64,000 bases of DNA from Saccostrea echinata (taxonomy: Eukaryota), in assembly GCF_033153115.1 (NCBI RefSeq), contig NW_026889779.1, positions 33,666,001 through 33,730,000 on the forward strand. Reading direction: 5' to 3'. The position numbers were made by a program, and so were the translations under genes. Position 1 is the stretch's first letter, and every line of letters begins with the position of its first letter. This document shows positions 30,061 to 30,458 of the stretch, piece after piece. The notes below the pieces were generated by a model. The model saw nothing but the letters and a program-made list of their open reading frames with translations, ran no database searches and was not told the DNA's origin.

Positions 30061-30458
30061 CTAACATCGTCTAAAAGTTCTGCCAATACTTGTACGTGTT
30101 CTGCCAATACTTGTTCTGACTGTTCGTGTACGCGTACGACTAATACATCTAACAGAAGTCCTTGTAGACGGTTGGCGACGTCGAATGGAATCGAACAATG
30201 CTCCAAGACCTATTGTGCCCCCAAACAATGCGCTAATACCTATGATCGGGAGCAATGCGACACCGGCACCTCTTTTCTTGCGGCCATTTGACCTGACATT
30301 GTAACTTTGCTTGCCGTTTAGAATTCTTATCAGTCCCTCTTGCCATTTTTCGATTACATAGCTATGTCCCTCATCAGGTCCTCCGAAACGATCAGCTCGT
30401 CTAAATCGCTCATTAATAATCTGCTGATTCATACTTATCTGGGCGTCCACATTCAATC
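30061..30458 (-). CDS. Terminal exon of a furin-processed peptide precursor (candidate cationic antimicrobial peptide)
   Basis: T-rich acceptor ending CAG at 30459. The 131-codon frame has RFRR and RKKR sites, then a hydrophobic GAGVALLPIIGISALFGGTIGLGALF segment and an Arg/Thr-rich tail with two Cys. AATAAA lies downstream at about 29870 and 29816-29821. The upstream exon is unresolved. Confidence 0.6.

Follow-up and report, generated by a model that had tools for sequence, protein, structure and literature searches.

An unnamed oyster precursor family with a candidate defence role, met through a broken gene copy in Saccostrea echinata

Closest described systems and the oyster locus

Most described antimicrobial peptides of bivalves are small and active on membranes or cell walls. 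Cathelicidins and BRICHOS peptides (e.g., arenicin) are made as precursors in which a signal peptide and a conserved domain precede a basic site, and a cationic peptide of variable sequence forms the C-terminus. According to excerpts of the source, myticalins have a central cationic peptide followed by a conserved propeptide at the C-terminus, lack a folded domain and occur in Mytiloida only (PMC5577615). Big defensins carry a six-Cys C-terminal beta-defensin domain, with a phase-1 intron between the hydrophobic region and the Cys module (PMC7203481, in excerpt). Their hydrophobic N-terminal domain is conserved and has a beta1-alpha1-alpha2-beta2 fold. The tick amidase Dae2 is an animal effector with shown transfer and activity (bioRxiv 10.1101/2020.04.10.036376, in excerpt). 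Finally, Ntox16 (PF15523) belongs to the bacterial polymorphic toxin systems; excerpts of its description present it as alpha-helical with a conserved R and [DNE]xxH and list it among predicted metal-independent RNase toxins, i.e., its RNase activity is itself a prediction (PMC3482391). This original prediction was all we found on Ntox16 in the literature searched.

Here, we analyse a locus in a 64,000-nt stretch of the S. echinata genome (contig NW_026889779.1, 33,666,001 to 33,730,000; "the window" in the following, with positions counted from its first letter). A preliminary description of positions 30061..30458 had read the open frame found there as a peptide derived from a big defensin, with a hydrophobic head on an Arg/Thr-rich two-Cys tail. 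We find that this frame is exon 4 of a four-exon precursor gene on the minus strand, which belongs to an unnamed oyster family. In reading order, the window copy encodes a signal peptide, RYKR, a helical domain of about 120 aa, RKKR and an Arg-rich tail.

Window exon 4 resembles big defensins in the hydrophobic stretch after a basic site and in its basic linker. Unlike in big defensins, however, the 69 residues after RKKR (in the following, the 69-mer) hold two Cys and no six-Cys domain, a 120-aa domain lies upstream where big defensins have a short prodomain, and head and tail are encoded in one exon. With myticalins, the family has in common that it is a multigene bivalve family with a hypervariable cationic peptide (PMC5577615, in excerpt), but its cationic part is a C-terminal tail, its precursor has a folded domain and the gene is an oyster gene. 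The sequence of conserved domain and variable cationic peptide behind a basic site is that of cathelicidin or BRICHOS precursors; in contrast to these, the oyster domain exists tailless as well and has a freeing site of its own, and a Pfam scan of 22 family proteins gave no match to a cathelin or BRICHOS domain. Dae2 is alike in being an animal effector that resembles an interbacterial toxin domain and is patchily distributed in invertebrates (bioRxiv 10.1101/2020.04.10.036376, in excerpt), while the oyster family would differ in its predicted intracellular RNA substrate and in the putative delivery tail fused to it.

Gene structure and state of the window copy

The features of the locus are as follows, where the intact paralog P0003 served as reference for the comparisons of exons 1 and 3.

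34539..34593, minus strand: coding part of exon 1, ATG and 18-aa hydrophobic signal peptide with phase-1 donor (84% DNA match to P0003 exon 1)
33833..33902, minus strand: exon 2, short acidic propeptide (frame kept across GT..AG introns; homologous exon in locus L012)
33318..33517, minus strand: exon 3, RYKR and N-terminal half of the conserved helical domain (70% identity to the P0003 exon)
33502-33513, minus strand: first furin-type site RYKR, within exon 3
33430-32, minus strand: single Cys of exon 3
33415..33417, minus strand: in-frame nonsense codon TGA in exon 3 (codon 76)
33337..33339, minus strand: in-frame nonsense codon TAA in exon 3 (codon 102)
30459..33317, minus strand: intron 3, 2859 nt, GT..AG
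30061..30458, minus strand: coding part of exon 4, with C-terminal domain half, RKKR, tail and stop
30343..30408, minus strand: invariant motif R-x10-D-x2-H-x6-W, its R being the first residue of RFRR
30364-30384, minus strand: GG turn within the motif, GGPDEGH
30271..30282, minus strand: second furin-type site RKKR (KR/KKR site kept in paralogs)
30184..30270, minus strand: hydrophobic head, made up of three 10-codon units that imperfectly repeat the tail start of the family
30064..30183, minus strand: tail rich in Arg, Thr and Ser; its Cys are at 30145-47 and 30064-66, and a near-duplication of 21 nt is at 30072-30113
29816..29874, minus strand: two AATAAA hexamers 3' of the stop, candidate poly(A) signals (contigs of run X1 reach into the 3' UTR to 29965)
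15740..15964, minus strand: second family copy, a fragment with frame-shifted exon 1 and exon 2 only

All introns are of GT..AG type, position 30458 is the splice acceptor of a phase-1 exon, and the frame is continuous over 240 codons from exon 1 into exon 4. The preliminary description had suggested mapping an upstream exon and searching for homologs. Three upstream exons were found, and the search gave 10 genome matches to exon 4, with the KR/KKR site kept in paralogs. Beside these exons, the conserved 120-aa domain and the two nonsense codons of exon 3 go beyond what had been described.

We compared the locus with three public sequencing runs, which are presumed to be RNA. One contig, from run X3 and about 87% alike, lacks precisely the 2859 nt that make up intron 3, and a second X3 contig spans the hydrophobic head. 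Contigs of run X1 are 97-99.6% identical across exon 4 and the 3' UTR, and their loose ends coincide with exon junctions of paralogs. X1 and X3 share a residue that differs from the window at four codons (i.e., non-synonymous), compared to one such codon with a synonymous difference. The first record of X1 (window 29965-30228) represents a second transcript form of the tail with 18 gap letters, which suggests that tail length varies among alleles or close paralogs.

Given its two in-frame stops in exon 3, the window copy is most likely a young pseudogene; that is, judged from its sequence, the window haplotype most likely represents a young pseudogene or a null allele, the gene itself being transcribed in relatives. 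At the position of the TGA, the frame is open in all nine other exon-3 matches, one of which has a stop elsewhere. A copy that is not dead appears somewhat unlikely, taking together the two versions in which the stops are private to the assembled haplotype or in which exon 1 joins exon 4 directly (both are phase 1), such that a short secreted product would result. Such a copy would be in line with the near-identity of the X1 contigs over exon 4 and 3' UTR, with the orthologue-like spliced transcript of X3 that includes the hydrophobic head, and with the retention of every invariant domain residue. On the other hand, two independent nonsense changes are present, the codons at which X1 and X3 agree against the window are four to one non-synonymous, the protein searches yielded no protein from the window locus, and no joint of exons 1 and 4 is found among the 15 listed of 96 joints. 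These arguments concern the haplotype only, and an intact allele elsewhere is likely.

The family, its domain and its tail

Exon 4 and exon 3 each have 10 matches in the genome (18 with P0034). This amounts to at least 11 family loci, spread over three contigs; in-frame stops occur in 3 of the 11, i.e., a birth-and-death pattern. No exon 3 or exon 4 match was found near the fragment at 15740..15964. The exon 3 profile recovers 12 proteins, all of them uncharacterized and from S. echinata or S. cucullata. Common to all are the signal peptide, RxKR, the domain (about 120 residues) and a variable tail rich in Arg, where the tails are mostly placed behind a KR/KKR site and Cys-terminated. Intact copies are under purifying selection: in 8 of 9 exon comparisons between intact paralogs, the domain shows dN/dS values of 0.11-0.30, and the value for the pair with P0010 is 0.61. 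For the window copy versus paralogs, values range from 0.26 to 0.72. Tails show dN/dS of 0.23 and 0.35 inside subgroups, while comparisons between subgroups are saturated.

A profile search of 1.84 billion proteins resulted in 18 matches with no named bacterial protein among them. P0017, P0019 and P0024 were discarded as chance matches, since they are long repeat proteins without the motif. Among the remaining ones are two proteins of Mytilus edulis (P0015, P0022), one of the mite Halotydeus destructor (P0021) and ENA sequences. The mussel and mite members each consist of signal peptide, basic site and domain without a tail. That is, the domain stands alone in Mytilus and Halotydeus and thus appears to be a mature product. 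The ENA homologues form groups (P0016, P0023, P0025) that lack a clear signal peptide, with P0016 located on contigs of up to 1.39 Mb. Scans of genomes, viruses and metagenomes gave no source for these groups, and the one weak plasmid match (E 0.8) lies outside the motif. The ESM Atlas gave no usable match for the P0007 domain or for P0021.

Some members deviate from the common form. P0010 (locus L007, G000:C33:5.12 Mb) has a 16-residue insertion just ahead of the GG turn and an even longer hydrophobic head in its tail, for which no Pfam match was found, and its annotated C-terminus extends beyond the genomic stop. L008 (G000:C29:18.786 Mb) and P0018 are degenerate: in one of these paralogs the motif is altered and the tail is less basic and has four Cys, while the other lacks most of the domain. 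In the openly accessible papers searched, six accession or locus ids are not mentioned, and no work describing the family was found by title or start of abstract, although supplements could list members. In this respect the preliminary description holds: the family is unnamed, and its members are predicted to be secreted precursors that are processed at basic sites and carry a cationic C-terminal peptide.

The AlphaFold model of the domain, based on 10 sequences, shows six helices (pLDDT 91, pTM 0.84). The last three comprise residues 52-68, 74-93 (carrying R) and 99-122 (carrying H). In all 12 diverse members aligned, Y, R, D, H and W are unchanged, and the pattern R...GGxDxxH...W is kept in the tailless mussel and mite members, too. 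The exact motif spacing is found in 27 of the 37 proteins compared; the other ten are the 3 unrelated matches and 7 truncated, indel-bearing or degenerate members. Such conserved polar residues in a free-standing, presumably secreted domain suggest an enzyme or a binding site. They also bear on RFRR, proposed earlier as a further furin site that releases a 42-aa middle peptide. A stretch of 42 aa up to the end of RKKR does exist. Nevertheless, RFRR is replaced by RYRQ in the X3 transcript, lies inside the predicted helix 74-93 and starts with the invariant Arg of the domain, which makes the middle peptide unlikely.

Neither the domain (22 family proteins scanned, Pfam cut-off) nor exon 4 (with filters that drop most matches above E 0.1) was assigned to a Pfam family. 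Foldseek found nothing at E 0.001 for the domain model in the PDB and viral libraries. The best matches of the VIA search (Z 6.4) are generic helical bundles, and the same holds for the fold search with a model of Ntox16 (best Z 7.7). Fold matches of this kind demonstrate neither kinship nor a new fold. A search of PDB sequences returned flagellin for query A3 (E 1.6-7.2), which was rejected, and no match for A5 or the 69-mer.

The 69 aa after RKKR are exactly as quoted in the preliminary description (frame 30456->30061 of the minus strand); they include 14 Arg, a single Asp and the two Cys listed above. The 21-nt duplication noted there is present as well but imperfect, with 18 of 21 letters identical over 30113-30072. 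A 7-residue tail repeat varies in copy number in P0011, too, i.e., it is a habit of the family. The hydrophobic head shows 32 of 66 identical letters at lag 30, which is reached by 9 of 5000 codon shuffles (p 0.0018). Its units 2 and 3 match the first six codons of an ordinary paralog tail in 12-13 of 18 letters, where the ordinary tail start is G-I-G-A-L-F. The head is without counterpart in most paralogs. Across the family, the net charge of the tail ranges from +7 to +26.

We also counted the Cys pattern among the 15 tailed proteins, which are related sequences rather than independent events. Thirteen have one Cys on either side of the basic site, while the other two have none on either side. 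For 11 of the 15, the first Cys lies past the domain but ahead of the basic site and the second at the end of the tail (P0001 assessed by eye); in 2 of 15, domain and tail carry one Cys each (P0010 taken from the genomic frame). The three tailless proteins have no such Cys. A-B toxins carry a disulfide across their cleaved site, and by analogy the placement of the Cys suggests a disulfide that holds the cut tail on the domain. The complex prediction for the P0007 domain and its own tail scored 0.07, which speaks neither for nor against this. In the window copy, the tail carries two Cys and the domain a third. Thus, the two-Cys hairpin proposed earlier is possible for this copy alone, whereas the family pattern places a single Cys to either side of the basic site.

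Relation to Ntox16 and candidate functions

Ntox16 is the best Pfam match of 2 of the 22 family proteins scanned, P0001 (E 0.065) and P0023 (E 0.061), with scores of 13.9 and 14.0 bits that do not reach the cut-off of 25 bits. For a closer comparison, a motif pattern was used to gather 120 bacterial loci. From these, 88 were scanned (mostly short frames were dropped), 25 were Ntox16 and 24 of them were aligned. Aligned by hhalign, the family and Ntox16 reach probabilities of 79% and 70% across 43 columns, in which R, GG, D and H coincide. When the motif was kept and all other columns were shuffled, 4 of 60 trials reached the real score; when the motif was masked, the match was gone (probability 0.1%). 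The family profile places the 25 true Ntox16 above 63 motif-only ORFs with AUC values of 0.87 and 0.92, which drop to 0.75 and 0.69 with the motif masked, where the negatives are largely non-coding frames and the Ntox16 set was itself chosen by the shared motif.

The two models match in helix order. Of the three helices in the bacterial Ntox16 model, the second carries R and the third starts with H; the likewise all-alpha oyster domain shows this order in its last three helices, with R on a long helix, a GG turn and DxxH opening the next helix. The spacing from R to D, however, is one residue shorter in the oyster family. C59 and C81, invariant in the 24 aligned Ntox16 rows (C59 due to the selection of the set), are absent from the animal domain, which has about 50 extra N-terminal residues and an invariant Trp. 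Introns, signal peptide and furin sites further distinguish the animal gene. In summary of these comparisons, kinship with Ntox16 is suggestive only and mostly driven by the motif; we see near even odds for true homology, and by the Pfam cut-off the oyster domain is not a member. An Ntox16 match within the oyster genome itself (L037) was rejected as a chance frame without gene context. Ntox28 was considered as well and dropped, as it gave no Pfam match.

A defence role is the most likely one for the family. For its intact members, we tentatively favour, at somewhat below even chances, a secreted, furin-processed two-part defence protein composed of an Ntox16-like RNase domain and a disulfide-linked Arg-rich delivery tail. 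Following predicted secretion, signal and propeptide would be removed at RYKR, and nicking would occur at RKKR while the disulfide keeps the tail on the domain. The polycationic tail would bind anionic microbial surfaces and carry the domain inside; reduction would free a helical R/D/H enzyme predicted to cut RNA. The same precursor might also work in the manner of cathelicidins, i.e., with the helical domain as carrier or chaperone and the released cationic tail as antimicrobial peptide. The conserved N-terminal domain and the variable, highly cationic C-terminal peptide behind RKKR would suit this, as would the purifying selection on tails within subgroups (0.23 and 0.35) and the amphipathic-looking stretch with which P0007 and similar tails begin. 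Yet the mussel and mite members are domains without a tail, the domain is freed by its own RxKR site, its R/D/H are invariant and enzyme-like, and in most members the Cys pair straddles the cleavage site, and we consider this reading unlikely.

Arg/Ser-rich tails are found in sperm basic and matrix proteins as well. The family might be of non-immune kind, e.g., a secreted protein of gametes, adhesives or the shell matrix, or else a ligand in signalling; its invariant residues would then form a binding site, and its basic tail would hold it on acidic matrix or on membranes. Three-helix arrangements are common (cf. the best VIA Z of 6.4), which leaves some room for such a role. A protamine role is excluded by the signal peptide; the patchy spread (oysters, mussels, a mite and metagenome sequences) and the many broken copies suit defence genes better, a mite has no shell, and the Ntox16-type motif is placed in matching helices. 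We therefore regard a non-immune function as unlikely. Very improbable, and largely refuted, is the chimera of the preliminary description, in which the hydrophobic domain of a big defensin is grafted onto a two-Cys cationic hairpin. That description presumes a likeness of the head to the ALLPI-containing segment of big defensins. What the locus does offer is a hydrophobic stretch behind a basic site, followed by IRRR, and big defensins carry basic residues between their domains (PMC7203481, in excerpt). Against this derivation, there is no match to PF14862 and none to a solved structure at E 10 (exon 4 against Pfam, the 69-mer against PDB sequences), no intron separates head and tail, and the head consists of internal repeats that are missing from most paralogs. 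A search of this genome for the big-defensin family gave 0 matches from 3 candidates scored, where the low sensitivity precludes a reading as absence.

Returning to the two-part defence protein, the unnamed family, first met through a broken copy, would belong with animal defence proteins that resemble a bacterial toxin domain. A farther-reaching and correspondingly doubtful version assumes that the oyster, mussel and mite family shares descent with Ntox16 and that rock oysters made a miniature A-B toxin from it, i.e., a furin-nicked nuclease with a disulfide and a swappable polycationic delivery peptide. If true, this protein would be the animal counterpart of a bacteriocin, and an enzyme-like domain that is secreted together with its own, variable delivery tail would represent a different mode of innate defence. 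The domain would then offer a small, easily expressed handle on Ntox16. Even without this link, it is an unnamed, well-folding domain (by its model) with catalytic-type invariant residues that occurs in molluscs and an arthropod, and a dozen natural cationic tails are available in the family. Useful material are the intact paralogs rather than the window copy.

A Bel/Pao LTR retrotransposon (22610-29535, minus strand), with gag-pol split into several frames, is located 526 nt downstream of the stop of the family gene, and its two 300-nt LTRs are identical, which implies a very recent insertion. Intron 3 contains a high-copy SINE-like repeat (about 32700-33000), and fragments resembling reverse transcriptases of Penelope/LINE type are found at about 31400-32000 and at 62508-63730 (minus strand). 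A 954-aa open frame (2-2863, minus strand) encodes a type B DNA polymerase (PF03175, E 7e-42) and is likely part of a Polinton/Maverick-type element. At 5483-5605 (minus strand) a small hydrophobic ORF start rich in Ala/Gly/Val presumably recalls IFI27/ISG12-like proteins; its 41 readable residues gave no Pfam match. Upstream of the gene, the plus strand carries two C1q-domain exons (49144-49614 and 60517-60993; PF00386, E 5e-17 and 2e-18), C1q being an expanded immune family of bivalves.
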